Source of the DNA: a virus
Taxonomy: Duplodnaviria; Caudoviricetes
Length of the DNA stretch: 64,000 nucleotides
Virus record (IMG/VR): IMGVR_UViG_2806311045_000001
Span: 6,218 to 70,217 of that record
Strand: one strand, 5' to 3'
Part shown: in pieces, positions 1,034 through 50,847 of the stretch
How the letters are laid out: every line of letters starts with the position of its first letter
Position numbering within the stretch: position 1 is the first letter of the stretch
Program-made: the position numbers and the translations under genes
Notes under the pieces: model-generated
Databases searched by the model: none
Told to the model about the DNA's origin: nothing
Seen by the model: only the letters and a program-made list of their open reading frames with translations

Positions 1034-1221
1034 AACGTCTCTCGTTGATAGGGAGTTGCATGTACGCGCTGGTCGGGCACAAAGCCAAGTCCAACCGCGC
1101 TATCTGCTGCGTGTGGCGCGGTGAGCGTGCGGACGATGGCGGATGCCAGGATGGTGGTGATCTCGGTGGCGCGCTCGCCGGCCGAGAGTTGGGAAGGGCA
1201 GGGTAGTTCGATGGACTTCAT
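1030..1221 (-). CDS. Small hypothetical protein
   Basis: ORF MKSIELPCPSQLSAGERATEITTILASAIVR; stop overlaps DUF2924 start. Confidence 0.55.
   Translation of the reverse strand: MKSIELPCPSQLSAGERATEITTILASAIVRTLTAPHAADSAVGLGFVPDQRVHATPYQRETL
1060..1089 (-). promoter_or_regulatory. 30-bp phage motif copy 1 (upstream of DUF2924/recombinase)
   Basis: Minus strand CTTGGCTT-tgtgccc-GACCAGCGCGTACAT, 27 nt before 1033 start. Confidence 0.7.
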
Positions 1222-1332
1222 GACAGCTTCGCGGAATGAAACTGCCATGGATGGTGGGGTGAATCGTCTGAAGCGGATAGTAAAGGAGGGTAATGAAGCC
1301 CACCAGTGACTACCTGTCAGATCGAGCCCTGG

Positions 1333-2511
1333 CTAATACAGCTGGAATCCATCCAGCCACTGCAGGAGTTCCTGCCCCGTTCGCTTTCGCAAGTCGATGG
1401 CATCAGCTTCGCGTAACGCCCACAATTTCCAGGTAACGAACCGCTTGTCGGCATGCCCCTCAGCTGTCAGGCTAGCCTCGACTTCCGATACCAGGGTCCT
1501 GAGCCGATCTGCCCGATCCCTTCCGTTCATCGCCGAGTTCAGCAGATCCTCCCGCTGCTTCTTCAATGCCGCTGCCGCCGCCGCAATCTCTTGTCGCTTT
1601 CGTTCTTCCGCTTCCTTTGCTTTTCGAGCCGCGTCCACTCGGCGCCGGGTCAAATCGTGATATCGCCAGTCGATCCAATCACGAAACCGCCGCTCCTTCT
1701 CAGACAGAAGCATCAACGTCATCGACGTGAAGAGCGGTATGTCAAAGCTCGTGAAGGTGTAGACACCTTTGTCCGGTTCGTCATTGCGACTGTCGGATTC
1801 GAACCGAATCTGAAATGGTCCGCTAATTGCTGTTTTGTCCTTGAGTGGCAATCGCCCATTCCGGGTCGTGAGCCCCACCTCAAAGCCCTTGCTGTATTGC
1901 CCGCAGGCTACACGCAGTTGGATGTGCCGTGTGCCGCTGGAACTCGGCTTGAAGCCCAGGTCGGTCCACCACCAGAGCAACAGGCTCAAACCGGAGAGCA
2001 GGCGGCGCCCCTCCGGACTGACGAACTCAGGCTTCCGCTCCCAACTGTAAGTCAACACGAGCTGTGCGCGTCGCTCGTCCTCGACCATGAGCTTCTCGAC
2101 TGCTGGATGCGTTCCCCGCGCCGATTTCGGCAAAGCTACGCAGTCGATCAATTCCTCATATCGACGCAAAGTCTGCTCGATGCTCTCCTTGAAAGCAGGC
2201 ATTGGCGGGATGGGGGTATCCAGATCATCCGGATCAACTTTAGGGATTAGATCGGTGACTGCATCATGGTCTTCTTCGATCTGTTCGGCTACGGAGTAGG
2301 TCAGCGCAGGTTTGACATAGCGCCGCTTACCGCTTCCTCCAGCGGCGAGGCTGGCCCAATAGCCGGCCATTGGCGCGGGCACATTGAGTTGCCTGCACAT
2401 TTTGCCGATCATCACGTCGGACACACCGAGTTCCTTGGCGAGCTGTGTCCTCGGTTTGCTCCAAACGAGGTCATAGAGCTGTCTTCGTCCGATACCCAGC
2501 AACTTGTTCAT
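1333..2511 (-). CDS. Hypothetical protein, N-terminal HTH-like region, C-terminal coiled coil
   Basis: 392-aa ORF; RRQLYDLVWSKPRTQLAKELGVSDVMIGKMCRQLNVP..GYW resembles an HTH. Confidence 0.7.
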   Translation of the reverse strand: MNKLLGIGRRQLYDLVWSKPRTQLAKELGVSDVMIGKMCRQLNVPAPMAGYWASLAAGGSGKRRYVKPALTYSVAEQIEEDHDAVTDLIPKVDPDDLDTPIPPMPAFKESIEQTLRRYEELIDCVALPKSARGTHPAVEKLMVEDERRAQLVLTYSWERKPEFVSPEGRRLLSGLSLLLWWWTDLGFKPSSSGTRHIQLRVACGQYSKGFEVGLTTRNGRLPLKDKTAISGPFQIRFESDSRNDEPDKGVYTFTSFDIPLFTSMTLMLLSEKERRFRDWIDWRYHDLTRRRVDAARKAKEAEERKRQEIAAAAAALKKQREDLLNSAMNGRDRADRLRTLVSEVEASLTAEGHADKRFVTWKLWALREADAIDLRKRTGQELLQWLDGFQLY

Positions 2512-2669
2512 TCGGAGCGCTCCTGTAGGTGGAGCCTCAACGATAGCAACAGAAGGTGATGCCAGTCATGGGCGAGCCTTCGGAAATGGCTTGTGACGCG
2601 ATACCTCGACAATCACAGATCCGGCTTAGCACTGCCTACCGCACTCAGCGACCAGCCGCCTAAGGATGC

Positions 2670-4907
2670 TCAATCAAGCAACGTCTCCGCTTCCGCGGCC
2701 TCGTCCTCCAACGGCTCCTCGGTGCTCGGCAGGTGCAGCTGCCAAGCGTGCGCGCCCTTGACCTTCACCAGATAGTCGCGCCAAGACGATGCTTTGGAAA
2801 AGAGGTTCGCGGGCGTCGCGCAGCCGGTGTCCTCCATCAGCTTCTTGGTGTTCACGTGCGGCGTGCCGGCGGCGTAGGCGTCCACCAGGCGCTGCAGCAC
2901 AGCGATCTTCGCCTTGCCCGTGACGCGCCAGGGCGCTCGGCCGGGCACGGACAGCAGGGCCGCATACCCGTCCGCCGAGACCTTGAGGCTGATGGCGGTA
3001 CCGCCCATGGCCGCCTGGTGGCCGTGCCGGTACAGCACCTTCAAACGCGCGAGATCGACGGCCGTGCCCGACTGGGCGGGCGAGAGGATGTCCTGGACCG
3101 GCACCACCACGTTCGTGCCCGCAAACGGAAACGGCGCTGGCGACGTGGTCAGCACAATGCCCGGCACGGCGCGCGGGCGCAGCCGCAGCGCGGCATCGAC
3201 CCGGGCGTATTGGCGCTCGCTGGCCATGCGGGTGGCGAAGTACAGTGCGATGGGCGAGCCATCGACGTCGAGTTCGCCGAGGAACACCGGCTCGTCATCG
3301 AGGTGCCGGCCCCGCACACCCTGCAGCGTGCTGCCGAGCGCGGTAATGATCTCCTCGCGCAGCCAGTTCAGGTGGACTTTCCAGCGCCGCGCATGCTTGG
3401 CGGACAGCATCACGTCATCACCGGTCAGGGGATCGCGGTAGCGCACGAAATTCGCATCAGCACAACGCTCAAGCGGCACCGCACTGCGCGTGCCATCGGC
3501 CAGTTCGACCACCTTCTCCGAAATGCGGTCGCCTTCGGTGAGGATGCCCTCGTCCTCGAAGCGCGCGATGTCGATGCCCAGCTGGGCGAGCGCAAAGCCA
3601 TCCATCGGACTGGTGGCGCACTCCAGCAATCGCGCGACCTGCCCGATCAGGTCCGGATCATCCAGGCCGGAACCAGGGTTGAGTGGCTTTAACACATCCA
3701 GCGCCTCCAACAGCTGCGTGCCGGCGAGCCGCAGACGCAGGTCGCGCTCGCTTTGCAGGCTGCATCGCCCCGGCTCGGCCAGCACAATGGACAGCGGCGT
3801 TTCCGTGGTTTCCCCCGCGAACACAAGATCCGCCACCAGGGTGACGCCCAGGATGGCCGCCGGCTGCGAGAAGGGGTGGTTGCCCCACAACTCGCCAAGC
3901 ACGTCGTGCAGTTCCGCACCACTGTCGAGATGCACGGTCACTGCATCGCTGGCGTGGCCGAGCAGTGCGCGCGCTTCGGCCAGATACAAGCGCTCGACCT
4001 TGGCGCCATCCAGGCGCGGCTTTACCCCGCTCAAGGGCTGGGCGAACGGCGACAAATCGTAGCGCGAGCGGTTGAGCGGCCGGCTGGACAGCGGCACCTT
4101 GAACCCGTGCGCCGACAGCACGTTGGCCAGCGGTGCTCGGGTCGAGAGCGTATGCGCGTAGACCTCGACCACCTTGCGCTCGGGCGCGTAGACCAGCGTG
4201 GCGTCTCGTGCGGGGAAGTAGCAGAAGCTGCGCCGGTTCCGGTTGACGACCTGCACCGCGGTGACCTGCTCGCCAGCGAAGCGCACGACCAGGCAGTGGG
4301 CAATCGCTGCCTCGCCGTCGTTCGGCTCATCCGCCAGCGCGACGTGTACGACCTCGCAGGGCTCGGCCAGCCGCATCGCCCGCGTGAGCTCCGCTTCCAG
4401 TTCCCGCTTCACCTTGTCGTTCCAAAGGAAGGGCGGCGGATCGTCGCACGGCACGTCGAAGGCGTCATAGAGCCGCTTGTTGCCCCGGATGTCCGCGGTG
4501 TTCAAGATCGACTCGGCGATCTCGAACAGGCGCGCGGTCGCGTCGGAATGCGCGCGCATCCAGACCGCGCGCCCGAATTCGCCACCGGGCTGCGACAGGA
4601 AGGTGGCGAACAGATCGGCGTCGTTCAGCTGGTCCGCCACGCTGGTGAGGATGGCTGAGCCGCGCGACGATGAGAGACGCACGATGCGCAGCGCTTCACG
4701 CTCGGCGGGCTCGCGTTGCTCGCGACGCAGGTGTCGGATGTGCTCCAGCAGCGCACCCGCGAGCGCGGATTCCTCTTGCGACCAGTCGAATCCGCGGCTC
4801 AGCGCCTCGCACTCGGGCAGGCCGCTGAACACCCGCAGCACGGCAACCGGCGCGTGTTCGATGAGATCGAGCAGATTGCTCGCGTTGGTCAGGAGCTTCC
4901 TGGCCAT
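2670..4907 (-). CDS. Large hypothetical protein, possible C-terminal winged-helix
   Basis: 745-aa ORF with coding-like composition; no catalytic motif recognised. Confidence 0.75.
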   Translation of the reverse strand: MARKLLTNASNLLDLIEHAPVAVLRVFSGLPECEALSRGFDWSQEESALAGALLEHIRHLRREQREPAEREALRIVRLSSSRGSAILTSVADQLNDADLFATFLSQPGGEFGRAVWMRAHSDATARLFEIAESILNTADIRGNKRLYDAFDVPCDDPPPFLWNDKVKRELEAELTRAMRLAEPCEVVHVALADEPNDGEAAIAHCLVVRFAGEQVTAVQVVNRNRRSFCYFPARDATLVYAPERKVVEVYAHTLSTRAPLANVLSAHGFKVPLSSRPLNRSRYDLSPFAQPLSGVKPRLDGAKVERLYLAEARALLGHASDAVTVHLDSGAELHDVLGELWGNHPFSQPAAILGVTLVADLVFAGETTETPLSIVLAEPGRCSLQSERDLRLRLAGTQLLEALDVLKPLNPGSGLDDPDLIGQVARLLECATSPMDGFALAQLGIDIARFEDEGILTEGDRISEKVVELADGTRSAVPLERCADANFVRYRDPLTGDDVMLSAKHARRWKVHLNWLREEIITALGSTLQGVRGRHLDDEPVFLGELDVDGSPIALYFATRMASERQYARVDAALRLRPRAVPGIVLTTSPAPFPFAGTNVVVPVQDILSPAQSGTAVDLARLKVLYRHGHQAAMGGTAISLKVSADGYAALLSVPGRAPWRVTGKAKIAVLQRLVDAYAAGTPHVNTKKLMEDTGCATPANLFSKASSWRDYLVKVKGAHAWQLHLPSTEEPLEDEAAEAETLLD

Positions 4908-4956
4908 GTGTGGTTCCCCGTTCTTGTTTTTGGTGTGGCATCCGGCAGAGCCGGCG

Positions 4957-5418
4957 TCAGTACCCCATATCGAGCGCCTGAGCCTGCTCGGTCAATGCCT
5001 CCAGCGCCTCGCGGCGCTGCGTGTCCAGGCGCTTCTTGTAGTCGACGACATCCCGGTAGCGCACGCGGCGATGCGTGCCGATCTTGTGGAACGGGATGTC
5101 GCCTTTCTCCAGCATCTGCACAAGAAATGGGCGGGACACCCCGAGCATCTGAGCGGCCTCCTGGGTGGTGAGTTCCGCATGCACCGGCACGACGGACACC
5201 GCGCAGCCCTTTTCGATCTGGTCCAGCACGTCTTGCAGCAACTGCAGCGCCGCGGCCGGCATCTGCACGCTCCGCACGCGCCCGCTGCCGTCGCGGAAGT
5301 CCACCTGGCGAACGCCGGAGCCGGCCTCAAACACGGTAGCCAGCGCGCGGCGGGCCTCTCGGGCCAACGCCACGTCCTCTTCGGATGGCAGCACTCTGGT
5401 GATGGAGGAGACGTTCAT
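4957..5418 (-). CDS. Excisionase-family (HTH_17) DNA-binding protein
   Basis: ELTTQEAAQMLGVSRPFLVQMLEKGDIPFHKIGTHRRV motif. Confidence 0.88.
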   Translation of the reverse strand: MNVSSITRVLPSEEDVALAREARRALATVFEAGSGVRQVDFRDGSGRVRSVQMPAAALQLLQDVLDQIEKGCAVSVVPVHAELTTQEAAQMLGVSRPFLVQMLEKGDIPFHKIGTHRRVRYRDVVDYKKRLDTQRREALEALTEQAQALDMGY

Positions 5419-5464
5419 GGGCAATCGCTCAGCGCGGCAAATCTGGAAGGGGCGCGATTCTATT

Positions 5465-5494
5465 CGAAACAAACGAAATCGAAATAAGCGAAAC
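5465..5494. repeat. Four CGAAA(C/T) direct repeats, candidate operator
   Basis: CGAAAC 5465, CGAAAT 5474, CGAAAT 5480, CGAAAC 5489 upstream of the HTH_17 gene. Confidence 0.5.
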
Positions 5495-5645
5495 GCAAGC
5501 CGGGTTCTATATGGGGCAAGGCTTTGCGGCTTGCACGCTGTCCGCGAGTCCGATCTGGGAACTCGTCAAAACCCAAATTTCGCTCGCCCAAGCCCAAGGC
5601 GTCGGGCAATGAAATAGAGCCTCTTTCAACAAGAGGACTCTCTTC

Positions 5646-5909
5646 ATGGCAATTCTTTCCTCACCTGTTCAATTGGGTCGCCACACCCGCCGGCACGAGG
5701 CACCGGCCCCTGTGCGTGCCGCGCTGGACGAGACCGAGCTCGCCAAGCGCTGGGGGCTGTCGGTCAAGACGCTGCGGCGCTGGCGCCAGGACCAGCTTGG
5801 CCCCGTCTTCTGCAAGCTCGGCTCCCGCGTCACCTACCTGATCTCCGAAATCGAAGCCTTCGAGCGGTGCGTCTCGCGCAATTCGACGTCGGTTCGTGCG
5901 TACCACTGA
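5646..5909 (+). CDS. HTH/AlpA-excisionase-like protein
   Basis: LDETELAKRWGLSVKTLRRWR..GP.FCKLGSRVTY. Confidence 0.85.
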   Translation: MAILSSPVQLGRHTRRHEAPAPVRAALDETELAKRWGLSVKTLRRWRQDQLGPVFCKLGSRVTYLISEIEAFERCVSRNSTSVRAYH

Positions 5910-5919
5910 GGAGGCAGCC

Positions 5920-6402
5920 ATGACGAATCTGATCCCGCTGCCGGCCGACATCGCCAGCATGTCCGTGAGCGAACTGGCAAAACTCTCGCCTGAGCGCAAG
6001 CACGAGCTTGATGCCACCCTCGATACCGCCATCGCTTGGCTCAAAACGGCACGCACCAAGCTCGATGCTGCATTCGACCAGTGCTACGGCGAGCAAGCGC
6101 GCGCCGCGCTGCGTAAGTCCGGCCGCGACTTCGGCACCGCCCATGTTGTCGATGGGCCGTTGCGCATCAAGTGCGAGTTGCCCAAAAGGGTTAGCTGGAA
6201 CCAAAAGCAGTTGACCGAGATCGCTGGGCGCATCGCCGCCGCGGGCGAGCAGATCGACGCCTATATCGACGTCAAGCTGACGGTGCCTGAGTCCCGTTAC
6301 AACAACTGGCCGCCCGCGCTGCGGGAGCAGTTCGCGGATGCACGCACGGTGGAGCCGGCCAAGCCGTCGTTCACTCTGACCTGCGACGGGGTGGCTGCAT
6401 GA
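5920..6402 (+). CDS. Conserved phage hypothetical protein
   Basis: GAGG RBS, ORF in early operon, stop overlaps next start. Confidence 0.75.
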   Translation: MTNLIPLPADIASMSVSELAKLSPERKHELDATLDTAIAWLKTARTKLDAAFDQCYGEQARAALRKSGRDFGTAHVVDGPLRIKCELPKRVSWNQKQLTEIAGRIAAAGEQIDAYIDVKLTVPESRYNNWPPALREQFADARTVEPAKPSFTLTCDGVAA

Positions 6403-12259: not shown

Positions 12260-12469
12260 ATGAAGATCCCTACACCGACCTACCGTTCCGCATTGGCCCG
12301 TACACAGCCCGAGGTCACCGACCTCGAAGCGTTCAAACGGCAGGGCTGGCGGGACCAGCGCATCCTCGTCGTTGCCGAATCCGACGAGCGTCTGGACTTC
12401 CTCGAACGCGAGCTGGTGCGCCGCATCGGTGAGCGGCTGTACGGCGAGGGAGGCAGGCACCGTGGCTGA
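12260..12469 (+). CDS. Small hypothetical protein
   Basis: In-operon ORF between RuvC-like gene and next gene. Confidence 0.65.
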   Translation: MKIPTPTYRSALARTQPEVTDLEAFKRQGWRDQRILVVAESDERLDFLERELVRRIGERLYGEGGRHRG

Positions 12470-12845
12470 GTGGACCAAGGAAGACGTGGCGGCCCGTTTC
12501 GAGGATGCCGCCAACACGGGACGGCGCCTGCCGCCCATCCGCGTGCAGGGCTACATCAACACGTGGCCCGCCATCGTGCGGCGCGAGTGGGAAGCCTTCG
12601 CTGCGGACGAGAAGGTCTACCGGCCTTTCCCGCCCAGCCCGCAGGCCATTGACCGCATGCTGGAGACGATGCGCTGGGTGCAGTGGCTGGAGCTTGAGCA
12701 GCGCCATCTCGTGTGGATGCGGGCCAAGGGCTACGGGTGGCGTGAGATCACGCTGCGCTTCGCCTGCGACCGAACGACCGCCTGGCGGCGCTGGCAACGG
12801 GCACTGGAAGTCGTGGCAGGCAGGCTCAACGCACCGACACATTGA
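12462..12845 (+). CDS. DUF6362-like protein, probable late-gene regulator with C-terminal HTH
   Basis: GTG start after GGAGG; RHLVWMRA.GYGWREI...CDRTTAWRRW resembles a sigma region-4-like HTH; last early gene. Confidence 0.68.
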   Translation: MAEWTKEDVAARFEDAANTGRRLPPIRVQGYINTWPAIVRREWEAFAADEKVYRPFPPSPQAIDRMLETMRWVQWLELEQRHLVWMRAKGYGWREITLRFACDRTTAWRRWQRALEVVAGRLNAPTH

Positions 12846-12899: not shown

Positions 12900-13166
12900 A
12901 TGCCTACCAGCGTCGCCCTCGGCAATCATTTCGAGACATTTATCCGCGACCAGGTGCAAAGCGGCCGGTTCAACAATGTGAGCGAGGTCGTGCGTGCCGG
13001 ACTTCGCTTGCTCGAAGAGAGCGAGCAGCGTCGTCAGCTTGAACTGCAGGCGTTGCGCGCCGAGATCGCTGCGGGCAAAGCGAGCGGTCCGGCCAAGCCG
13101 GCCGATGAGGTGTTTTCCCGTCTTGAGGCCAAGTACAGCGCACAAGCTAGGCGCAAGCAGAACTGA
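12900..13166 (+). CDS. parD: ParD-family RHH antitoxin
   Basis: SGRFNNVSEVVRAGLRLLEE. Confidence 0.9.
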   Translation: MPTSVALGNHFETFIRDQVQSGRFNNVSEVVRAGLRLLEESEQRRQLELQALRAEIAAGKASGPAKPADEVFSRLEAKYSAQARRKQN

Positions 13167-13465
13167 TGCGTCTGGCCATTACCCCGCTTGCCGAGCAAGA
13201 CCTTGAGTCCATCGCTGACTACATCGCACAAGACAACCCGGCACGTGCCGTCACATTCGTCCGTGATCTGCGGGAGCAATGCCAGCGCCTCGTGATGAAC
13301 CCGCCCGGCTATCGCTTGCGGCCGGAACTCGGGGACGACATCCGTTCATGCGCCTACGGTCGTTACGTGATTTTCTTTGTCGCCGCCCCGGATGAGGTGA
13401 TCGTCATTCGCATCCTGCATGGCGCACGTGATCTGCCCGCCGTTTTCCATGCCGATGAGCCATAA
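13166..13465 (+). CDS. parE: ParE/RelE toxin
   Basis: AEQDLESIADYIAQDNP...YVIFF...IRILHGARD. Confidence 0.9.
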   Translation: MRLAITPLAEQDLESIADYIAQDNPARAVTFVRDLREQCQRLVMNPPGYRLRPELGDDIRSCAYGRYVIFFVAAPDEVIVIRILHGARDLPAVFHADEP

Positions 13466-13833: not shown

Positions 13834-15744
13834 GTGTGCCACGAATGCATCCAGTGGCGTGATTGTTGGTGGGTGCAATGCTGTATCAGAGATGAGGGTC
13901 GGCCCCTCGGAGGCGGTGTCCAGACGCAGCCTCCAAACCACCTTGAGTTGCTGCCGTTAAGAGCGGCGGTGATGAGCGTCAAGGAAAAGGCGGTAGTGCG
14001 AACCGATGGGTGCAAACTCGCTGAGGTTCGCACTGCAAACCGTCAGGTACGTGTGATCAGAAGATGAACGCAAGTGAACTGCCGTTGAAGTGTCGAAAGC
14101 GTTTAGGCGATGTCAAAAGCGCGGTATGCGAACTACGCGCGACAAGTCCAGCGGGAGTCTGGCGACTGGTTGGGCGGCATCCGGCATGTAGGCAGCATGA
14201 TCATCACACAGGCTCTGGTGCGGAACGTGGGAACCTGTCGTCCCGATGCCAAGGGAGCGGCGCGGAGCAGAGGCACTGCGAGCGCCTGAGTACCGATGCG
14301 GGGCACAGGGGCAGATGGCCCCGTAGTAGTGACGAAGCGCCTGTAATGGGCGTGGAGCGAAGGGGGCCAGTTGTTGGGGCTGATTTGTTGATCAACCGAG
14401 CGATCGGGATGAGTCCATGAATCAGCCAAAGCCGTTTGCGGTTTCCAAACGTGCTGTTTGGGAAGCGTACAAGAAGGTCAAAGCCAATCGCGGTGCGGCA
14501 GGCGTCGATGGTCAATCGATCGAGGAGTTTGAACAGGATCTCTCGGGAAACCTGTACAAGCTCTGGAACCGGCTGGCTTCGGGCAGCTACATGCCGCCTG
14601 CGGTACGGTGCGTCGAGATACCGAAAGCCACAGGAGGAACGCGACCGTTGGGTATTCCGACGGTGGCCGACCGAATTGGGCAGATGGTGGTAAAGGACGC
14701 GCTGGAGCCGATCCTGGAGCCATGCTTTCATCACGACTCCTATGGATACCGGCCGAACAAATCCGCGCACGACGCCCTGGCGGTGGCCCGGCAGCGATGC
14801 TGGCGCGCCGCCTGGGTGCTGGACGTAGACATCAAGGGGTTCTTCGACAATATCGATCATGCCCTTCTGATGAAAGCGGTGCGCAAGCACATCGATTGCA
14901 GATGGATCACGCTTTACATCGAGCGGTGGCTGACTGCGCCGGTGCAATTGCCGGATGGAACGTCGCAAGCACGGAACAAGGGAACGCCGCAGGGTGGAGT
15001 TATCAGCCCGTTGTTGGCCAACCTGTTCCTGCACTATGTGTTCGACATGTGGATGGTGCGAAATTTTCCCGCCAACGGTTTCGAACGGTACGCCGATGAT
15101 GTGGTGATCCACAGCACGAGCTTAAAGCAAGTGACCATGCTGCGCGCGCAGCTCACGGAACGCTTGGCGGACTGCAAATTGGAGATGAGTCCAGGCAAGA
15201 CGAAGATCGTCTACTGCAAGGACAAGCGGCGGAAAGGAGGTTACCCGGAAATCAGCTTTGATTTTCTTGGGTATACATTCGGGCCGCGCAAGTCCAGAGC
15301 CAAGGATGGTTCAATCAGCCTAAACTTTCTGCCCGCCATTAGCGGCAAAGCAGCCAAGGCAATCCGTCAGACCGTGCGGGACTGGAGTCTGCACCGACGC
15401 ACACCGATATCCCTTGAGGAAATCGCGCGTCGAATCAATCCGGTCGTACGCGGTTGGGTGGATTACTATGGTCGCTTCTATCGTTCAAAACTGTGTCTGG
15501 TCCTGTCTCACATTGACCTGCATCTAGCCAAGTGGATTGCGCGCAAGCATAAGCGGGTGCGCAAGAGCTTGGTGCGGGCATATGAGTGGTTGCGGCGGAT
15601 ACGGGGAGAGTGTCCGGAATTGTTCGCTCACTGGCGCATGGCCTACCGGAGCTAAATGGCTCAACAACAAGAGCCGTATGAGGGGAGACTCTCACGTACG
15701 GTTCTGTGGGAGCGCAGGGGGGAGGTTCCCCTGCGCCACCCGAT
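13834..15744 (+). mobile_element. Group II intron, RmInt1-like (bacterial class D/IIB)
   Basis: 5' GTGTG at 13834; domain V GAGCCGTATGAGGGGAGACTCTCACGTACGGTTC 15671-15704 (AGC triad); DVI ending ...CCCGAT 15744; EBS1 GCGAACT 14128-14134 complementary to exon AGTTCGC 13827-13833. Confidence 0.92.
14417..15655 (+). CDS. ltrA: Group II intron reverse transcriptase/maturase, no endonuclease domain
   Basis: RPLGIPTVADR, DIKGFFDNI, GTPQGGVISPLLANL, RYADD, FDFLGYTF, maturase X domain; 412 aa. Confidence 0.96.
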   Translation: MNQPKPFAVSKRAVWEAYKKVKANRGAAGVDGQSIEEFEQDLSGNLYKLWNRLASGSYMPPAVRCVEIPKATGGTRPLGIPTVADRIGQMVVKDALEPILEPCFHHDSYGYRPNKSAHDALAVARQRCWRAAWVLDVDIKGFFDNIDHALLMKAVRKHIDCRWITLYIERWLTAPVQLPDGTSQARNKGTPQGGVISPLLANLFLHYVFDMWMVRNFPANGFERYADDVVIHSTSLKQVTMLRAQLTERLADCKLEMSPGKTKIVYCKDKRRKGGYPEISFDFLGYTFGPRKSRAKDGSISLNFLPAISGKAAKAIRQTVRDWSLHRRTPISLEEIARRINPVVRGWVDYYGRFYRSKLCLVLSHIDLHLAKWIARKHKRVRKSLVRAYEWLRRIRGECPELFAHWRMAYRS

Positions 15745-17285: not shown

Positions 17286-18502
17286 CGGCCTCCTGGCTCG
17301 CAGACAAGATCGAGCACTGGCCGATCCAGCGGCTCGCCCCCTACGCCGCCAACGCCCGGACGCACTCCGACGAACAGATTGCGCAGATCGCGGCCAGCAT
17401 CGTGGAGTTCGGGTTCACCAATCCGATCCTGGCTGGTGGCGACGGGGTCATCGTTGCGGGGCACGGGCGCCTCGCCGCTGCCATGAAGCTGGGCTTGCAG
17501 CTGGTGCCGGTGGTGGTGCTGGACCACCTGAGCCCCACGCAACGGCGGGCACTGGTGATCGCGGACAACCGCATTGCCGAGAACGCGGGCTGGGACGAAG
17601 TCGTGCTGCGCGCCGAGCTGGCTGCGCTCGACGCGGCGAACTTCGACCTGTCGTTGACGGGCTTCGATGTGGACGCGCTGGCCGAGCTGATGGACGGGGA
17701 GGAGGGCGACGGTCAGGCGGAGGAGGCTGCGCTGCCGGAGGTGCCTGAGGAACCAGTCTCCCGTCCGGGCGACGTCTGGGTGTTGGGCAGGCATCGGCTG
17801 CTGTGCGGGGACGCCACCGTCGTGGAGAGCTACGACAGACTGTTACAGGGTGAACCGGCGGACATGGTCTTCACGGATCCGCCGTACAACGTGAACTATG
17901 CCAACACGGCCAAGGACCGGCAGCGCGGCACGAGCCGGGCCATCCTGAACGACAACCTGGGCGGCGGCTTCTACGATTTTCTGCTGGCAGCGTTGACGCC
18001 GACGATTGCCAACTGCCGAGGTGCCATCTACGTGGCGATGTCCTCCAGTGAGCTGGACGTGCTGCAGGCGGCGTTCCGCGAGGCGGGTGGCCGCTGGTCG
18101 ACGTTCATCATCTGGGCCAAGGACCGTTTCACGATGGGGCATGCGGACTACCAGCGGCAATACGAGCCGATCCTCTACGGATGGGCCGAGGGAGCACAGC
18201 GCCACTGGTGCGGCGACCGCGACCAGGGCGACGTCTGGCAGATCAAGAAGCCCGCGAGGAACGACCTGCATCCAACGATGAAACCGGTGGAACTGGTGGA
18301 GCGGGCGATCCGCAATTCGAGCCGGCCGGGTGACGTGGTGCTCGATGCGTTCGGCGGTTCGGGCACGACGCTGATTGCCGCAGAGAAGGCGGCGCGCACT
18401 GCGCGCCTGATCGAACTGGATCCCAGGTATGCCGACGTGATCGTCAGGCGTTGGGAGGAATACACCGGGGAGCAGGCTATCCGCGAGGCGCTGATCCGGT
18501 AG
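17282..18502 (+). CDS. ParB-N domain + N6 DNA methyltransferase 2
   Basis: PYAANARTHSDEQI; FTDPPY; HPTMKP; LDAFGGSGTT. Confidence 0.92.
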   Translation: MTASWLADKIEHWPIQRLAPYAANARTHSDEQIAQIAASIVEFGFTNPILAGGDGVIVAGHGRLAAAMKLGLQLVPVVVLDHLSPTQRRALVIADNRIAENAGWDEVVLRAELAALDAANFDLSLTGFDVDALAELMDGEEGDGQAEEAALPEVPEEPVSRPGDVWVLGRHRLLCGDATVVESYDRLLQGEPADMVFTDPPYNVNYANTAKDRQRGTSRAILNDNLGGGFYDFLLAALTPTIANCRGAIYVAMSSSELDVLQAAFREAGGRWSTFIIWAKDRFTMGHADYQRQYEPILYGWAEGAQRHWCGDRDQGDVWQIKKPARNDLHPTMKPVELVERAIRNSSRPGDVVLDAFGGSGTTLIAAEKAARTARLIELDPRYADVIVRRWEEYTGEQAIREALIR

Positions 18503-18543
18503 ACGCACGCCACCCGCAGCGCGGGCGGCATCGCGTTAGGGGC

Positions 18544-18909
18544 CTACGCCGAAAGTTCGTCGGCGATTTCGCAGGCGGTCACGAAGGCCGTGAGATGGGG
18601 CAGGTCACGCGGGATGCCGTAGATCTGGCTGAGCCCACCGTTCGATCTGCGTTGCATCCACAGAGCCGCCGTGGAGTCGATGGCATCGGTAAGTGTCTGG
18701 CCACCGTGGAGGGCGTTGCGGACTTCATCCGCAAAGTGGCGTCCGAATGCGCTGTCGAGGAAGAGGCGAACGGCCTCAAGGGTCGAACCGGTGGCCGTCG
18801 CGACGGCCGTCATCGCCAGCGGCCAGGCTTCGGCGGCGCGCTCCTGCAGGGCGCCGTAGAATCCCCAGCCCTCGTTGCGGGTGGCGGGAATCTGGTCAGT
18901 AGTGGTCAT
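18544..18909 (-). CDS. Small phage protein (paralog A)
   Basis: GFYG...AAEAWPLAM..VATATG...VRLFLDSAFGRHF. Confidence 0.75.
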   Translation of the reverse strand: MTTTDQIPATRNEGWGFYGALQERAAEAWPLAMTAVATATGSTLEAVRLFLDSAFGRHFADEVRNALHGGQTLTDAIDSTAALWMQRRSNGGLSQIYGIPRDLPHLTAFVTACEIADELSA

Positions 18910-18945
18910 GGTGTGTTCCTTCTTGAGCGTCGTTGTGATGGCACC

Positions 18946-32828: not shown

Positions 32829-33119
32829 TCAGGCGATCAGGAATTTGTCGCGGTTCTTGCCGAGCCATGCGGGTGCACGGCCACGGCCGGACCAGGTGGC
32901 ACCGGTCTTGGGGTCGCGGTACTTAGGGACCGATGCCGCCTTGGGGCCGCGCTTGCCACCACGCTTCGGTGCCAGACCGATGTCCTCCGCGGTCAGGCCG
33001 TATTCCTGCACGACTTGTCGCACCTGCGCGGTGATCTCGGCCAGCTCTTTCTGGCGGGCGGCTTCGAGTTGCTCTTCGAGCTTGTTCTTTTGAGCAAGCA
33101 GGTCTTTGTAGGTTGCCAT
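32829..33119 (-). CDS. hns: H-NS family nucleoid protein
   Basis: N-terminal coiled coil; PKYRDPKTGATWSGRGRAPAW DNA-binding motif; 96 aa. Confidence 0.92.
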   Translation of the reverse strand: MATYKDLLAQKNKLEEQLEAARQKELAEITAQVRQVVQEYGLTAEDIGLAPKRGGKRGPKAASVPKYRDPKTGATWSGRGRAPAWLGKNRDKFLIA

Positions 33120-33682: not shown

Positions 33683-34741
33683 ATGAATACACCTATCACC
33701 CTCGACACCGACGGCTGTCGGATCGGGAGACGACGCACGCCTTGCGGTGCGAGCGTCGGTGCTGCACACGATTCGAAGGCCACTGTGCACGTCGTCTCGA
33801 TGTCCGGCGGCAAGGACAGCACCGCAACCGCGATCCTTGCGCTGGAACTCCATGGTGCCGCCGCCTGCCGGTTCGTCTTCGCCGACACCGGCAACGAGCA
33901 TGAGGCGACCTACGACTACGCGCTGGACTATCTGCCTCGCGCTCTCGGCATCCGCATCGACGTGGTCCGCGCGGACTTTGCCGACGAGTTCGCCACCAAG
34001 CGCGCCAACTTGGCACGGATCGCTGCCGGAGAACTTGAGTCGGCAGTCTATGGCCGGCGCCAGTTCAAGTACCGATGGACGCGCAGTACCGCTGCCCGCG
34101 CGTTGGAGCTGCTGCATCCCACCGGCAACCCGTTTCTGGATCTCTGTCTGGTACGTGGTGGATTTCCGAGCCGCAAGCGCCAGTTCTGCACTGAATACCT
34201 GAAGCGGAATCCGCTCACGGAATACGCGCTTGACCTGGCGGACGCTGGCTACCACGTTGAATCGTGGCAAGGCGTGCGCGCCGACGAGAGCGAGGCCCGC
34301 CGCTGGCTGCCGTCCTACGAGTACCGCGGCGCGAGGCTGGCGATCTACCGCCCGATTCTGCGCTGGCGGGTCAACGACGTGTTCGAGGCGCACAGGGTGG
34401 CGGGGATTGAGCCAAATCCCCTGTATCGAAAGGGCATGCATCGCGTCGGCTGCATGCCCTGCATCAACTGCAGCAAGGGCGAGCTGCGCGAGATCGCGAG
34501 TCGGTTCCCCGAGCACATCGAGCGCATCGCCGAATGGGAGCGGCTCGTATCCCAAGTGTGCCGTCCGCGCACGCCGGTCTCGTTTTTTCATCTGGGCACG
34601 CAAGGACACGCTGGTCAGTCTTCCACGATCGACGCAGTTGTGGAGTGGAGCAGAACCACACGCGGTGGCCGGCAATTCGACCTGTTGGCCGGCTTGACCG
34701 AGCCCACAGCCTGTTCTTCCGCCTATGGCCTTTGTGAGTAG
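33683..34741 (+). CDS. PAPS-reductase-family (PP-loop) protein
   Basis: SMSGGKDST, FADTGNE, QFCTEYLK, GVRADESEAR, RVGCMPCINC. Confidence 0.88.
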   Translation: MNTPITLDTDGCRIGRRRTPCGASVGAAHDSKATVHVVSMSGGKDSTATAILALELHGAAACRFVFADTGNEHEATYDYALDYLPRALGIRIDVVRADFADEFATKRANLARIAAGELESAVYGRRQFKYRWTRSTAARALELLHPTGNPFLDLCLVRGGFPSRKRQFCTEYLKRNPLTEYALDLADAGYHVESWQGVRADESEARRWLPSYEYRGARLAIYRPILRWRVNDVFEAHRVAGIEPNPLYRKGMHRVGCMPCINCSKGELREIASRFPEHIERIAEWERLVSQVCRPRTPVSFFHLGTQGHAGQSSTIDAVVEWSRTTRGGRQFDLLAGLTEPTACSSAYGLCE

Positions 34742-35947: not shown

Positions 35948-36361
35948 TCAGGCTTCCCAGGGGTTGATGAGCTGGACGTCGAGCCCCGCGAAATCTTTGG
36001 TGTTGCGCGTGACCAGCGTGAGGTCGTGTTGCAGGGCGGTCGCGGCCAGCAGGCCGTCGATGGCGGGCAGGGGGCGGCCAGCCGAGGACATCAGCCGGCC
36101 CCAGCGGTCCGCAGTATGTGCATCGATGTCGAGCAATCGGCCGAGAAAGTAGTTCGGCAATTCCACTTCGAGCCAGTCAATCAGGTTCTGGCGGCGTACC
36201 GCGTCCTCCAGCCGCTCGATACCTTTGCGAATCTCGCCCAGGGTCAGCACGCTCAGGTAGAGCGACTGGCGCGGGCGGTCCTGCATCCAGGCCACCACGC
36301 GCGCATCGGGCGCTTTGCGACGCAATTCGGACAGGACATTGGTGTCGATCAGGTAACTCAA
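35948..36361 (-). CDS. vapC: VapC PIN-domain toxin
   Basis: YLIDTNVLSE, TLGEI, IDGLLAATA, LVTRN..DF. Confidence 0.93.
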   Translation of the reverse strand: MSYLIDTNVLSELRRKAPDARVVAWMQDRPRQSLYLSVLTLGEIRKGIERLEDAVRRQNLIDWLEVELPNYFLGRLLDIDAHTADRWGRLMSSAGRPLPAIDGLLAATALQHDLTLVTRNTKDFAGLDVQLINPWEA

Positions 36362-36609
36362 AACTCGACCTCGCGCGGCAGGCTGCGCTCGCGCTCAAAA
36401 ACGACATCGTCCTGATCGGCCAGCGGGGATTGGCGCATGAAGCTGACCAGCGACTCACCGCTGCCGCTCAAGCGATCGAACAGTGCGCGCGAGATCACTA
36501 CCGCCACCGGGCGGCCATGCACGGTGATTTCCTGCGGGCCGTCGTCTGCTGCCCGCTTCACGACATCGGAAAACCGCGCCTTGGCGGCCTGCATTTGCCA
36601 GCTTTGCAT
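36358..36609 (-). CDS. Phd/YefM antitoxin
   Basis: WQMQAAKARFSDVVKRA...PQEITVHGRPVAVVIS. Confidence 0.9.
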   Translation of the reverse strand: MQSWQMQAAKARFSDVVKRAADDGPQEITVHGRPVAVVISRALFDRLSGSGESLVSFMRQSPLADQDDVVFERERSLPREVEF

Positions 36610-40789: not shown

Positions 40790-40794
40790 CTCCG

Positions 40795-41190
40795 ATGCAA
40801 TTGAAGAACCTGGCGGACAGCGCGGTCCTCGCGCTGCCCGATGACCTGCTATGGACGGACGAACACGCCTGGACGCCCGCCGTGGCGGCGGTGTCGTACC
40901 TGCTGACCGGCGCACTGCTGGTCGAATCGGCCGCCCGCCAGAAGGGGCGGCCCATCACGCTGGTGGGCGGCGCCGACATGGCCTGGGTGACCCGCGCGAC
41001 GGTGAACACGCTGTACGCGTGGGCTGCGGCGCCCAATCGGCAATTCGAACTGACCCTCACGAATGGCCGCGCCTTCACCGTGGCTTTCCGGCATCACGAA
41101 ACCGCCATCGAGGCCGAGCCAGTGATGGGCTTCCCGGCCCGGCGCGAGGGCGACTTCTACCGGCTGACCGTGCGCTTCATGGAAGTGTGA
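40795..41190 (+). CDS. Distal tail protein (probable)
   Basis: LPDDLLWTDEHAW...GRPITL; follows tape measure. Confidence 0.72.
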   Translation: MQLKNLADSAVLALPDDLLWTDEHAWTPAVAAVSYLLTGALLVESAARQKGRPITLVGGADMAWVTRATVNTLYAWAAAPNRQFELTLTNGRAFTVAFRHHETAIEAEPVMGFPARREGDFYRLTVRFMEV

Positions 41191-41749
41191 AGGTGATCGC
41201 CTTCGTCCGGTCGTCAGTCCAGCAACTGCTGATGTTCCTGGCATCGCACGTCGTATAGGCCTTTTCTCCGAGCAGCTCGCGCGTCTTATGCAGATTCTTT
41301 TCGGTCACGGTTTCGCAGCGCACGGTGTTGTCGCGCCAGCCACAGAAGTACACCTTGTCGGCTTCTTCCACGTCGCGCCGGAACCGCACCAGATCTTGCG
41401 GATTGACTGTGTGGTTGGCCGGCACGGCGGAAGGGATGTGTTTGGCAAAGTCCTCGAAGAATGCTCGTGGCGAGAACGGATTGGCGGGGTCGTATGTCAG
41501 GCCGAGGGCCTTGCATAGCGCCTTGTAGTCATCGTCGTCCAGGCGCGGCCAGATCTCGAAATTCCGGTCGACTTTGATCTCGAACGCCACGTTGTGGCCC
41601 CGAGCGCCGAATAGCAGCTGATAGGTCGGTCCGTCGATGAAGAAATACACATCGAAACTGACCCGCCCATGCCGGTAATCGAATCGGATGCGGTCCAAAT
41701 TCTTCGCTTGCATGTCTTGGTACAGCGGTTCGAGTCCACCCAACTTCAT
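41177..41749 (-). CDS. DUF6037-like accessory gene, antisense in tail operon
   Basis: GGAGGTGA RBS; MKLGGLEPLYQDM...FDYRHGRVSFDVYFFID. Confidence 0.72.
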   Translation of the reverse strand: MKLGGLEPLYQDMQAKNLDRIRFDYRHGRVSFDVYFFIDGPTYQLLFGARGHNVAFEIKVDRNFEIWPRLDDDDYKALCKALGLTYDPANPFSPRAFFEDFAKHIPSAVPANHTVNPQDLVRFRRDVEEADKVYFCGWRDNTVRCETVTEKNLHKTRELLGEKAYTTCDARNISSCWTDDRTKAITFTLP

Positions 41750-41778
41750 TGTCACCTCCACAAGGAAATACAACCAGA

Positions 41779-44700
41779 ATGGCAATACTGACAGGGGATA
41801 TCAAGCTCCTGGCCGCCGAGCGCCTGCTCGACACCCCCGACGGCGGCGGCCGCATGACCGGCCACGTCGTGGTCGACGGCCAGTCCAACAACCTGTTCCC
41901 CGACATCTCCGAGCTCGATCGTACCTACGGGCGCGTGTCGCTGCGCAAGTCCTTTGTCGGGGTGCTGACCGATTCGACCGATTCCTACTACGGCGCGCAC
42001 GCCATCCTTGCCGATGCCCCAGGCGATCCACGGGTGTCGGTCACGCTCTTCACCACCAAATCATGGACCGACCGGCGCGATGCCGCCAAGGATCGCGTCG
42101 AGCGCTACCTGGCACGTGGCGTCAAATGGCCCGGCCAACTGCTGGAGCGCCAGCTCACCGGCCAGCGCGCTATCACGCTGCTGTTGAAGCCGTCTGATTC
42201 ACTGCCGCGTGTCGGGCAGGCGCTCGTGCTCGTGCAGGACGAGGCCAAGCCGACCGAGACCGAGCAGTACGTGAGGGTCACGCGGATCACCACAACCGAA
42301 CGGGAGTTCACGGTGAGCGAAGGCGGCGGCACCGTCAAGTTCTCGTCGATCGTCGCGACCTGCGAGATCTCCGATCCGCTGCGCTATGACTTCGAGGGGC
42401 CGGCGCCGTCCAACCGGGATGACGTCTCGGCCAAGGCCGTAGTGCGCGACACGATCGTCGCCAACGCCGCTGTCTACTACGGTATCGCCCCCACCGTGGC
42501 CGAGGCGCGGGTGGGGGACCTGCGCGTGCAGGTGCCGGGCCTCTTCGGGCAACTGGTGCCGTCCGCGCAGTCGGAGACGCCGCTGGTGGACCTGAACGCC
42601 GCCGGCCAGGCGGTACCGCTGCTGGAGAGCGGCAGCGGCGTGCTGGCCTACACGGCCAACGGCCAGGTCGCCAGCGGCCGCAACCTGTACCTGGGCAACC
42701 CCCTGGTGCCGGGCAGCCTGCGCATTGCCGGTGGCGGCTACACGTTCACCGACTCGGCGGGCCAGCTCAAGTCAGGCACGAGCACCATCGGCACGGTCGA
42801 CTACGCCCGCGGGCTGGTGGCCTTCAAGGACGGCACGCCGGGATACGGCGGCGATTTCCAGGTCAGCTTCCGGCCGGCGGGTGCCCCTACCCGCGTGGCC
42901 GATACGGCAGCGATCGCCGTCGCCCAGGAGAACCGCGGCTACGCCTACACCATCACCCTGTCACCGCCGCCTAAGCCAGGGGCGCTGATCGTGTCCTACA
43001 TGGCCCAGGGCAAGTGGTACGACCTGCGCGACCAGGGCGACGGGGCGATCAGGGGGACCGATTCGTCCTTCGGGGCGGGGACGCTGGACTATGTGACCGG
43101 CTCGGTGATCCTGACGACCGGGGCCCTGCCGGACGCCAACACGGCCATCCTGTTTTCGTGGGGGAGTGCGGCCAGCTACTTCAACCGTGTCTCGGCGCCG
43201 GTGGAACCACCCACCGTGCGCCACACAGTGGCACATCCAGGCATCGCGCCGGGCACCTTGCGTATCACGTGGCCAGACGGTGCGCGTCAGCGCGTGGCCA
43301 CCGACGATGGGCACGGGGTGATCACCGGAGACGGTTCCGGCACCGTGCGCTATGCGCGCGGCGAGCTGGTGTTCCGGCCCGCCGTGCTGCCCGCTGGTGG
43401 TGCGGAGCTGACCCTCGACTACGAGTGGGGGCCGCCGCAGGAAGCGAACTTCGCGCACCCGCTGCGCAACGCCGACGGCACCGTCACGGTCCGGCTGCCG
43501 CAGACCGACCTCCGCCCGAACACGGTCGAGCTCGAGTTCAACCTGCTGATCGAGAACTACCAGTCGATCTCGGGCACGCCCGCCGAGATGCAGGTGGTGC
43601 AACGCGTCGACCCGATCAAGATCGCGCGCGACACCGGCGGCGGCGCATTTGATGCTGCCGTGGTCGGCCGGATCGACTACGCCACTGGCACCATCACCTT
43701 CCGGCCCGACACGACAGTCAACATCCCGTTCGCGCGCTACAGCGTGCAGCAGCTGGGCTGGACGGTGGAGGGCAACGAGCGCCGCCCGGTCTACCGCAAT
43801 ACCTTCAGCCACTGGGAGTACAAGCCGGCTGGCGCGGCGATGCCCGTCGACGACTCGGGCTACGTCAAGGTGCGCTACCGCGCCGCTGACGCAGCGAATG
43901 CAGCGACTGAGACCGTGACGCTCGCCCAGCTGGAAGTCGATCTGACCGACCACTACGCCGAGGCCATCGTGCCCGGTAGCGTGCGCTTTGGCCTGGGTGG
44001 CAAGGTCTACGTGGACCGTCTCGGGATGCTCGTCACCGACATCAATGCCAACACCGGGGCCGGCACTCAGGCTGGCGCCATCGACTACGCCTCGGGCCGG
44101 GCGCTGCTGACCGTCTGGCAGCCGGGCGCCGGCAACGTGGTGTCGATGCAGTCGTTGCTGACCGAATTGGGCGGCCAGCCGGTCGATGAGGTGACCTTCC
44201 GCGTGCCGGCGGCGCCCGTGCGGCCCGGCAGTCTGCAGATCCGCGCGGTACCGCTGACCGGTGGCCAGATCACGGCCACGGCCAACGCGGATGGCACCAT
44301 CGCGGCAGCGGGCATGCTCGGCACGGTGGACTACCAGACCGGCGTGGTGCGCGTGCGGTTCGGGCGCTTCGTGCCCGCAGCCGGCCGGGAAGGCGAGATC
44401 TGGTACAGCGCCGATGCTGTGCGCAACGGCCAGATCTTCCAGCCACTGCCGGTGCTGGCCGACACGCTGCGCTTCAACGCGGTGGCCTTCACGTACCTGC
44501 CGCTGTCGGCTGACGTGCTCGGACTCGATCCAGTCCGGCTGCCGCTCGATGGCAAGGTGCCGATCTTCCGGCCGGGGGACGTGGCCGTGGTGCACCACAC
44601 CGAGACCACGCCGTTTCCGGCCAATGCGCGCGCTGGCGACACACTGGACGTCGGCCGCGTGCGTCTGTCCTCCCTACGGGTGCTGGATGCCAATGGCAAG

Positions 44701-46558: not shown

Positions 46559-46561
46559 TCC

Positions 46562-47439: not shown

Positions 47440-47443
47440 CGCA

Positions 47444-49288: not shown

Positions 49289-49297
49289 GAATCCGCG

Positions 49298-49522: not shown

Positions 49523-49546
49523 ATCCCAACCTGTTTTTGCAACTGG

Positions 49547-49577
49547 AACCCGCCCTTGAGGCGGGTTTTGTTTTTTT
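49547..49577 (+). terminator. Intrinsic terminator between tail and lysis genes
   Basis: AACCCGCC-cttga-GGCGGGTT followed by TTGTTTTTTT. Confidence 0.8.
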
Positions 49578-49588
49578 GGAGCACATCA

Positions 49589-49879
49589 ATGAACGCACCG
49601 ATGGTGGCCGACGGCATGGTGACCATGCCGCGGGCCGAATTCGAGGAGTTGCTGGAGCGCGTTGCCGAGAGCGGCGCGCGGGCGGCACTGGCCGAAGTGG
49701 GCCTCGATGGCGAGAACGCCGCGAACGACATCCGCGAGCTGAGGAATCTGCTGGACGCCTTCAACGAAGCCAAGCGCACTGCTTGGCAGACCATGGTCCG
49801 GATGATCACGACTGGCCTGGTGCTGGCGCTGGTTGCCGGGGCGGTCATCAAGTTCGAGCTGTTCAAGGGGGCGCGATGA
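49589..49879 (+). CDS. DUF6127-like protein with C-terminal TM helix (holin/antiholin candidate)
   Basis: Hydrophobic MITTGLVLALVAGAVIKF; first gene of lysis cassette. Confidence 0.65.
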   Translation: MNAPMVADGMVTMPRAEFEELLERVAESGARAALAEVGLDGENAANDIRELRNLLDAFNEAKRTAWQTMVRMITTGLVLALVAGAVIKFELFKGAR

Positions 49880-50352
49880 TCGAGACGCTCCTGGGTGGTC
49901 TGTTGGGCGGGACCTTCCGCCTAGCCCCTGAACTTCTGAAGTGGCTCGATCGCAAGGGCGAGCGCGGCCACGAGCTTGCCATGCAGGACAAGGCGCTGGA
50001 GTTCGAGAAGTTGCGCGGCGCGCAGCGCATGGCCGAGATCGGTGCAAGCGCCGATGCGGCGTGGAACACGGGCGCCATCGAGGCGCTGCGCGACTCCATC
50101 AGCGTGCAAGGCCAGACGTCCGGCGTGCCATGGGTTGATGCGCTGTCGATCAGCGTGAGGCCAGTGATCACGTACTGGTTCATGGGCCTGTACTGCGCGG
50201 CCAAGACCGCCGCGTTCGCGGGGGTGCTCACGGCCGGGGCAGGGTGGGGCGCAGCAACGGTGCAGGCGTGGACCGAAGCCGACCAGGCGCTGTGGGCCGG
50301 TGTCCTGAATTTCTGGTTTTTGGGTCGGGTGTTTGATCGGGTGCGGCCGTGA
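49876..50352 (+). CDS. Membrane protein, holin-like
   Basis: Several hydrophobic segments; VRPVITYWF; precedes lysozyme. Confidence 0.65.
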   Translation: MIETLLGGLLGGTFRLAPELLKWLDRKGERGHELAMQDKALEFEKLRGAQRMAEIGASADAAWNTGAIEALRDSISVQGQTSGVPWVDALSISVRPVITYWFMGLYCAAKTAAFAGVLTAGAGWGAATVQAWTEADQALWAGVLNFWFLGRVFDRVRP

Positions 50353-50810
50353 TTGTGGTGCCCCGAGCGGCCTTCGAAATCGCCAAGCACTTCGAGGGGT
50401 TCCATCGGGTGCCGAAGGCCGACCCGCTGCGGGCTCATCCGTATGTCTGCCCCGCTGGGTACTGGACGATCGGCTACGGTCACCTCTGCGATCCGACGCA
50501 CCCGCCCATCACGCAGGCCCAGGCCGAAGTCTATCTGGCGGCGGATCTCGTGACAGCGCTCAACGCGACGCTGCGCTACTGCCCCGTGCTTGCCGTCGAG
50601 CCAGAGGGCAGGCTCGCAGCCATCATCGACTTCACCTTCAACCTCGGGGCGGGGCGGCTGCAGACCTCGACTTTGCGGCGACGCATCAATCAGCGGGATT
50701 GGGCTGCTGTCGCAAACGAGCTGCGCCGCTGGGTCTACGGTGGCGACAAGGTGCTGCCGGGGCTGGCCGCGCGTCGCGAAGCCGAAGTGGCTTTATTGCG
50801 ATTGAACTGA
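50349..50810 (+). CDS. Endolysin, GH24 lysozyme
   Basis: FEG...YVCPAGYWTIGYGH; FTFNLGAG; GLAARREAE. Confidence 0.93.
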   Translation: MIVVPRAAFEIAKHFEGFHRVPKADPLRAHPYVCPAGYWTIGYGHLCDPTHPPITQAQAEVYLAADLVTALNATLRYCPVLAVEPEGRLAAIIDFTFNLGAGRLQTSTLRRRINQRDWAAVANELRRWVYGGDKVLPGLAARREAEVALLRLN

Positions 50811-50817
50811 GGTGACG

Positions 50818-50847
50818 CTTGGCTTCTGTGTTGAACAGCGCGTTCAT
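50818..50847 (+). promoter_or_regulatory. 30-bp motif copy 9
   Basis: CTTGGCTT-ctgtgtt-GAACAGCGCGTTCAT, 31 nt before 50878. Confidence 0.8.

Follow-up and report, generated by a model that had tools for sequence, protein, structure and literature searches.

A multicopy 30-bp motif of AcaML1-like prophages as a candidate promoter class, apparently undescribed, for recombinase operons and accessory cassettes

In phage lambda, the CII-activated promoter pI lies inside xis, and within the set of pI, pRE and paQ some promoters oppose late transcription. Repeated promoters linked to small phage genes have been described in the PeSL cassettes of the T4-type phages RB49 and phi1, in which units of promoter, leader and ribosome binding site (RBS) recur, small genes are shuffled and hairpins lie near or over the -35 element (PMC2839356), and in the ESAS of cluster K mycobacteriophages, a multicopy conserved promoter-containing motif of temperate phages that accompanies small non-structural genes and whose reader is unknown (PMC11373665). 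The dmpR promoter Pr of Pseudomonas putida CF600 is a verified sigma70 promoter with T at -11 and a -10 element in which only T-7 matches the consensus; it requires a 17-bp spacer and a -15 element, has G-14 and T-30, its non-consensus bases are likewise essential, and its weak output is stimulated by guanosine tetraphosphate (ppGpp) with DksA, a stimulation bypassed by T-11A (PMC3526299, PMC3152329). Here, we present a bipartite 30-bp motif found in nine copies in a 64,000-nt stretch (the window; positions 6,218 to 70,217) of the IMG/VR record IMGVR_UViG_2806311045_000001, a complete provirus whose genes are ordered as in Acidithiobacillus phage AcaML1 (JX507079).

The arrangement recalls lambda in that the putative promoter of the integrase operon lies within an upstream small open reading frame (ORF) and that other copies point against late transcription, but the motif lacks the TTGC-N6-TTGC repeat, no CII homologue was identified, and the lambda promoters keep A-11. 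With the PeSL cassettes it shares the repeated units and the shuffling of small genes by recombination at repeats; however, those are strong consensus sigma70 promoters of lytic phages (PMC2839356), whereas here the phage is temperate, the -10 is non-consensus and the same signal stands ahead of the integrase operon. The ESAS, which resemble the motif in copy number, gene context and temperate lifestyle, differ in having SigA-like hexamers and a conserved inverted repeat, and their sequence is unrelated (PMC11373665).

Nine copies in an AcaML1-like prophage

All nine copies listed in an earlier note, which had been made from the sequence alone, were recovered at their coordinates and strands in the window (Table 1). 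They score 21.7-46 bits with a matrix iterated on 120 IMG/VR loci of relatives, compared with a top match of 12.6 bits in 20 Markov shuffles of the window, and the remaining sites of the 70-kb record all stay at or below 10.8 bits; the chance expectation for exact motif matches is 0.0003. The fixed spacer length separating the two halves held as well, with true sites occurring only at 7 nt, and the printed examples of matches at other lengths looked like the same sites shifted out of register. Start codons lie 29-42 nt 3' of the motif, which keeps the fixed downstream placement proposed before and corrects its range of 27-43 nt; in relatives, a start codon with an RBS follows 28-43 nt past the motif (mode 34-36). 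As the note had also observed, no copy stands ahead of head, tail or replication genes in the window.

Between the DNA methylases and the terminase, six copies form an array ahead of small genes that oppose the late operon. A seventh copy in this region (19012) heads an inverted paralogous cassette; it is the weakest of the nine, is followed by a poor RBS and precedes a paralogue of the 18544-18909 gene (E 4e-23), and related contigs skip this cassette (joint 18989->19458). The other two copies stand ahead of the DUF2924/serine recombinase genes, where the motif sits within a small ORF homologous to AcaML1 gp5, and ahead of a 98-aa gene past the lysis genes. The promoter class envisaged in the note, here common to the recombinase operon and the accessory cassettes, is supported.

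AcaML1 itself has four near-identical copies in equivalent places, and exact copies were found in further hosts, among them Burkholderiales, Rhodocyclales and Lysobacterales, where they concentrate in prophage loci or recombinase islands; those isolated copies that were examined belong to gp5-DUF2924-recombinase islands or to the 98-aa gene. The DUF6362 protein of the record is identical to one in FP885906.2, which we take to be Ralstonia PSI07. In 22 of 30 Ralstonia genomes no exact copy is present, and the reversed-pattern control gave zero. The scan of related prophages and host chromosomes proposed in the note hence limits the motif to AcaML1-like prophages rather than scattering it in host DNA, and the copies in host core intergenic DNA that would mark a host transcription-factor regulon were not found. 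DUF2924 was detected in 59 of 301 Pseudomonadota genomes sampled. No prior description emerged from the literature on the motif or on the DUFs, nor from that on RSc locus tags and promoters of AcaML1, in agreement with the note; the GenBank features displayed carry no annotation of the motif, Rfam has no match at the motif positions, and PADLOC and Rfam together matched neither the motif nor the cassette genes.

Base pattern and promoter register

Thirty loci upstream of DUF2924 were gathered by gene family and not by motif, and expectation maximization on this gene-anchored set, begun from a softened beta matrix, gave frequencies of 0.97 for T2, 0.82 for G4 and 0.91 for A5, resembling a TTGACA-like -35 element. 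These upstream regions retain the 30-base frame with other letters, including TTGATA, TGGATA and TGGACT as the -35. In the resulting register, positions 2-7 correspond to the -35 and positions 25-30 to the -10 hexamer, separated by a 17-bp spacer, with position 23 at -14. Position 23 is G at 0.85 and position 30 T at 0.91 in the gene-anchored set, in which T at 25 (T-12) and A at 26 (A-11) each reach only 0.01. G-14 is 1.00 in the beta set, which was seeded by the exact pattern, and all beta copies carry TTGGCT, a -35 with 4/6 consensus bases, where some relatives have TTGATA (5/6). The -10 hexamer of the window motif matches 3/6 (T-10, A-9 or A-8, T-7), and T-11 occupies the melting-adenine position. 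In one clade, -15/-14 is TG, and A-11 is present in this register in some alpha-type cassette copies. At -9/-8, the beta copies read CA (275), AC (53) or AA (1), a preference that may reflect one spread variant instead of many events. A pyrimidine/purine (Y/R) step occurs at the predicted -1/+1 in 8/9 window copies and in 92% of 288 cassette copies.

No good -10 was found in any register of the beta copies, which lack the A-11 of a canonical TAnnnT, and a promoter scanner reported no canonical promoter in 18000-22600. The statement of the earlier note that this is "not a sigma70 -10" is correct as far as T-12 and A-11 are missing, but the 17-bp sigma70 register is kept together with T-10, A-8 or A-9 and T-7, relatives drift to TTGACA and to TGn, and TAATAT appears in some Clostridia copies.

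In Clostridia prophages, an array occupies the same slot, is headed by a repeat in the spacing of the motif and has two cassette families in common with the proteobacterial arrays (E 2e-10, 2e-8). With a matrix built from Proteobacteria only, one Clostridia site ranks first in 40 kb (22.5 bits vs a null maximum of 15.9), and the other Clostridia subtype does not rise above background; with a Clostridia-only matrix, 5/9 window copies are within the top 12 of 128,000 positions. Two Clostridia copies read TTGATA/TGGATA-17-TAATAT, one directly ahead of a serine recombinase and the other ahead of an amidoligase in the Ca. Heliusvirales genome NatCom_991; their TAATAT falls at positions 25-30, and they anchor the housekeeping-sigma register. 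Ca. Heliusvirales (PV036413) and AcaML1 also share with the present prophage the order methylases - small-gene array - terminase, the serine recombinase module and the same or a homologous motif, with the difference that the Clostridia array is co-oriented with the late genes and that of the present prophage is reversed. The paper on the Heliusvirales contains neither the word "promoter" nor "motif" (PMC11283538).

It is likely that the motif functions as a promoter within sigma70 geometry. Pr is its closest tested precedent, sharing T at -11, the loss of T-12, T-7, the strict 17-bp spacer, the -15 element with G-14, T-30 and many fixed non-consensus bases. However, Pr needs a -35 of TTGAC(T/A), at least 5/6, compared with the 4/6 TTGGCT of the motif, and its -10 matches at 1/6 (only T-7) compared with 3/6; since these two defining features differ, we do not file the motif as a member of the Pr class. 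Furthermore, the motif is multicopy and phage-borne across phyla, whereas Pr has been called a class of its own. By analogy, the motif plausibly works like Pr, and essential non-consensus bases of the kind known from Pr would explain its invariance without a second protein.

Within this geometry, we tentatively favour, at slightly under an even chance, a promoter gated by the state of the host without a dedicated phage factor over one that depends on a phage helper or repressor. The motif would be read by host RNA polymerase with the housekeeping sigma70/sigmaA, through the -35 at 2-7, the 17-bp spacer, the -10 at 25-30 and a "-15 element" with G-14, with T-7 kept and T-12/A-11 gone, and transcription would start about 7 nt past the motif, or 10 nt past it in an alternative register. 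The polymerase may bind but open the DNA slowly, resulting in a low output in need of a general host boost, by ppGpp/DksA in nutrient stress as for the P. putida Pr or by supercoiling. In this way the DUF2924-serine recombinase operon, with its pI-like promoter inside the upstream small ORF, and the accessory cassettes would be coupled to the physiology of the host, with no dedicated phage activator needed, and the repeated promoter-leader blocks would double as homology for cassette exchange.

Several observations weigh against such a promoter. The -35 matches at only 4/6 positions, and Pr tolerated no 4/6 variant of its -35 (PMC3526299). The Y/R signal is missing in the DUF2924 copies, has a second peak 3 nt further on (position 40), and comes from homologous flanks, so that the counts are not independent. 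In TG-type and Clostridia copies a 19-20 bp register gives a better-scoring -10 than 17 bp, with Clostridia copies other than the two TAATAT ones scoring better with a 19-bp spacer. The beta statistics depend on the exact pattern as seed, and the sole RNA run consists of contigs whose coverage mirrors a DNA run. Finally, the block at -18..-13 hardly varies across hundreds of beta copies, which exceeds the known reading by sigma70 and suits a dedicated protein.

Candidate readers of the motif

Such a protein is the core of the first alternative, which we regard as rather unlikely: a sigma70-type promoter that stays off until the -18..-13 block (or sigma2) is bound by a phage protein, which aids melting in a CII-like, GcrA/RbpA-like or class II activator mode, or else a block that serves as the operator of a phage repressor. 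The base-specific invariance outside known sigma70 contacts, next to the free positions 9-15, argues for it, as does the placement of the recombinase copy in an upstream ORF and of the array against late transcription, which recalls lambda pI and paQ. Both readers proposed in the earlier note failed as required factors. DUF6362 (12462) is absent from AcaML1 and from two further motif-bearing loci (L052, L083), in all of which a DUF6456-like gene replaces it; it occupies the Q slot, weakly matches a Q-like PHROG and is also carried by elements with other motif variants. The 745-aa protein (2670) is missing in at least one immunity region that is complete, as well as in stand-alone islands with the motif, although it or a split form lies near 30/35 DUF2924 copies, and its predicted fold (alignment-based, pLDDT 89.8), with an RdgC/CENP-N-like half that weakly matches lambda RexA followed by a winged helix, resembles RdgC/RexA and not a sigma factor. 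In many relatives, this immunity-region gene (2670-4907, minus strand) is split into genes of about 400 and 330 aa, and the fusion is a candidate Rex-like exclusion or defence system.

The candidates that remain are genes conserved in the family as a whole: DUF2924, DUF3489, which probably has two winged helices, gp5 and the HTH_17 protein at 5646-5909. DUF2924 occurs in 12/12 regions compared and DUF3489 in 9, but phage WO of Wolbachia (L325-L327) retains DUF2924 and the serine recombinase without the motif, neither family was seen in the Clostridia elements that keep it, and the HTH_17 slot is held in some relatives by an extracytoplasmic function (ECF)-like sigma with no matching change of motif type (G011 vs G027). 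No phage DNA-binding protein tracked the motif in all elements compared, and the motif is unchanged from Burkholderiales to Acidithiobacillus hosts although the immunity and Q-slot genes differ. No relatives of solved structure were found for DUF2924 or DUF3489. DUF2924 may be a recombination directionality factor. A divergent control region with repeated CGAAA pentamers (5418-5646) precedes the HTH_17 gene, whose PIN partner is present in AcaML1 and missing here, and no XRE-type repressor was found in the immunity region of this prophage.

The ECF-like sigma of relatives, encoded at the head of the early operon, bears on a second alternative, that an alternative sigma reads the motif, either RpoH, RpoS or an ECF factor of the host or the sigma of relatives acting in trans. 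CGTT at 24-27, 16 nt from TTGGCT, has ECF geometry, CTTGA and CC(T/C)(T/C)AT variants look like RpoH sites, and relatives carry Sigma70_r2 or r4 proteins. We nevertheless consider it improbable, because the complete record has no Sigma70_r2 or r4_2 domain that would define a phage-sigma (ECF-type) regulon in this element, the sigma family of relatives is unmatched in 35 beta immunity regions, the lack of exact copies in most Ralstonia genomes speaks against a host regulon site, and the motif is conserved into Clostridia, where the set of alternative sigma factors differs. Separately, a sigma54 promoter was ruled out on inspection (no GC at -12), and so were dyads of the LexA/Cheo and FNR kinds and one of MerR type spanning the spacer, which are not kept in variants.

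Cassette exchange, neighbouring genes and significance

The arrays are highly shuffled, with 30 gene orders in 48 arrays of at least three cassettes, and the identity shared by pairs ends at about 0-30 nt upstream or at about 15-30 nt downstream of the motif. Swaps that centre on the motif could point to an attC-like recombination site for cassette capture, used by the serine recombinase of the element. However, crossovers are seen to either side of the spacer and not at one position, with one set of pairs in which the spacer goes with the downstream gene (0.85) and a second in which it goes with the upstream DNA (0.82; baseline 0.39), each gene has a single copy at a fixed distance to the RBS, no dyad is conserved, and single copies stand ahead of DUF2924 and at 50818. 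An attC-like role is therefore very improbable, and homologous recombination between repeats fits the swap pattern better than a site-specific system. No att direct repeat was found. A "first-injected end" model was ruled out, as the side of the array that holds the terS-like gene differs among relatives.

An arm upstream that pairs with the -35 half is present in 19% of beta copies and in 0% of shuffles, and the DUF2924 copy lies in frame within gp5, whose frame is open across the motif in 89% of DUF2924 copies, so that an RNA or single-stranded DNA hairpin or a conserved peptide was weighed as well and given the smallest chance of all. The stem score is reached by 1/9 window and 0/4 AcaML1 copies, spacer covariation is small (2.67 vs 2.33 pairs), and Rfam shows no match at the motif sites; the pairing arm is accessory. 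A peptide constraint was rejected, as open frames contain only 31% of the cassette copies. Most cassette genes of the window are followed by predicted GC hairpins (no shuffle control).

The DUF6900-like segment inside three DUF3489 proteins (L278:17304-17912, L290:18095-18766, L279:997-1869) suggests fusion of cassette genes with one another, and a 329-aa gene, presumably DUF932-like, occurs as a motif-headed cassette in an Azonexus metagenome-assembled genome (L144), which hints at anti-defence genes in the arrays.

Table 1 Motif copies and associated genes in the window; predicted +1 positions lie 7 nt past the motif.
Feature	Position	Strand	Remarks
Large serine recombinase, 5' part	1..584	-	462 aa, runs on outside the window; AcaML1 homologue has Resolvase, Recombinase and Zn-ribbon domains
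DUF2924 gene	581..1030	-	first of recombinase operon; Pfam PF11149
72-aa ORF, AcaML1 gp5 homologue	1030..1248	-	60% identity; reads through motif; stop overlaps DUF2924 start
Motif copy	1060..1089	-	in gp5 ORF, 29 nt before DUF2924; predicted +1 near 1053
745-aa protein	2670..4907	-	RdgC/RexA-like clamp half and winged-helix half; motif does not require it
DUF6362, Q-slot late regulator	12462..12845	+	motif does not require it
121-aa cassette gene	18544..18909	-	phrog_8020 (function not known)
Motif copy, GTTACT type	18946..18975	-	predicted +1 18939
Motif copy of inverted extra cassette	19012..19041	+	divergent, weakest; 21.7 bits
122-aa paralogue of 18544-18909 gene	19075..19443	+	39% identity
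62-aa cassette gene	19596..19784	-	
Motif copy	19821..19850	-	predicted +1 19814; -35 half pairs with inverted arm upstream, stem about 15 bp
116-aa cassette gene	19882..20232	-	family also in Clostridia prophage arrays, family hidden Markov model E 2e-10
Motif copy	20275..20304	-	predicted +1 20268
DUF3489 paralogue 2	20360..20866	-	
Motif copy	20902..20931	-	predicted +1 20895
DUF3489 paralogue 1	20987..21502	-	
Motif copy	21538..21567	-	predicted +1 21531
86-aa cassette gene	21607..21867	-	
Motif copy, first of array	21904..21933	-	predicted +1 21897
Motif copy past lysis genes	50818..50847	+	predicted +1 50854
98-aa gene, right end of prophage	50878..51174	+	relatives arranged alike

Further features of the prophage include a group II intron (13894-15744, plus strand; reverse transcriptase 14417-15655) between a putative late promoter region and the methylases, which is absent in related contigs (joint 13833->15760), and a moron-like promoter (41775-41805, minus strand; TTGATA, 17 bp, TG, A-11, T-7) before a DUF6037 gene (41177-41749); this promoter, with its A-11, may be distantly related to the motif. 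A C4 antisense RNA (Rfam RF01695; 51741-51829, minus strand) lies just past the last motif-headed gene, and a 3386-aa filamentous haemagglutinin/CdiA-like gene (53334-63494, plus strand) adjoins the prophage end. A ParDE pair, a PIN toxin-antitoxin pair, an H-NS-like gene and a PAPS-reductase/SspD-like gene are located at 12900-13465, 35948-36609, 32829-33119 and 33800-34741, respectively.

The motif appears to be a real, prophage-specific promoter design that is apparently undescribed and that promoter finders overlook; new here are its register, the homology across phyla, the exclusion of readers and the comparison with Pr. It is of broad relevance, as DUF2924 elements occur in about one fifth of the Pseudomonadota genomes sampled and a dominant order of gut phages is among the Clostridia counterparts, and we found no description in the literature of how integrase or accessory genes are switched on in these elements. 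If host polymerase fires without A-11, hundreds of natural variants would be at hand for studies of melting and of ppGpp/DksA activation, and host starvation would be linked to the prophage life cycle; if a helper is needed, it would represent an activator class not yet known. It is possible, though we hold this only loosely, that a lineage spanning Proteobacteria and Clostridia kept an A-11-less design through which integration and a shuffled set of small host-interaction genes read host nutrition, either directly at RNA polymerase via ppGpp/DksA or via a novel sigma70-melting helper; A-11-less promoters would then go from a one-off to a widespread regulatory class. Whether or not a helper is needed, the motif tags the accessory genes of these phages with precision.

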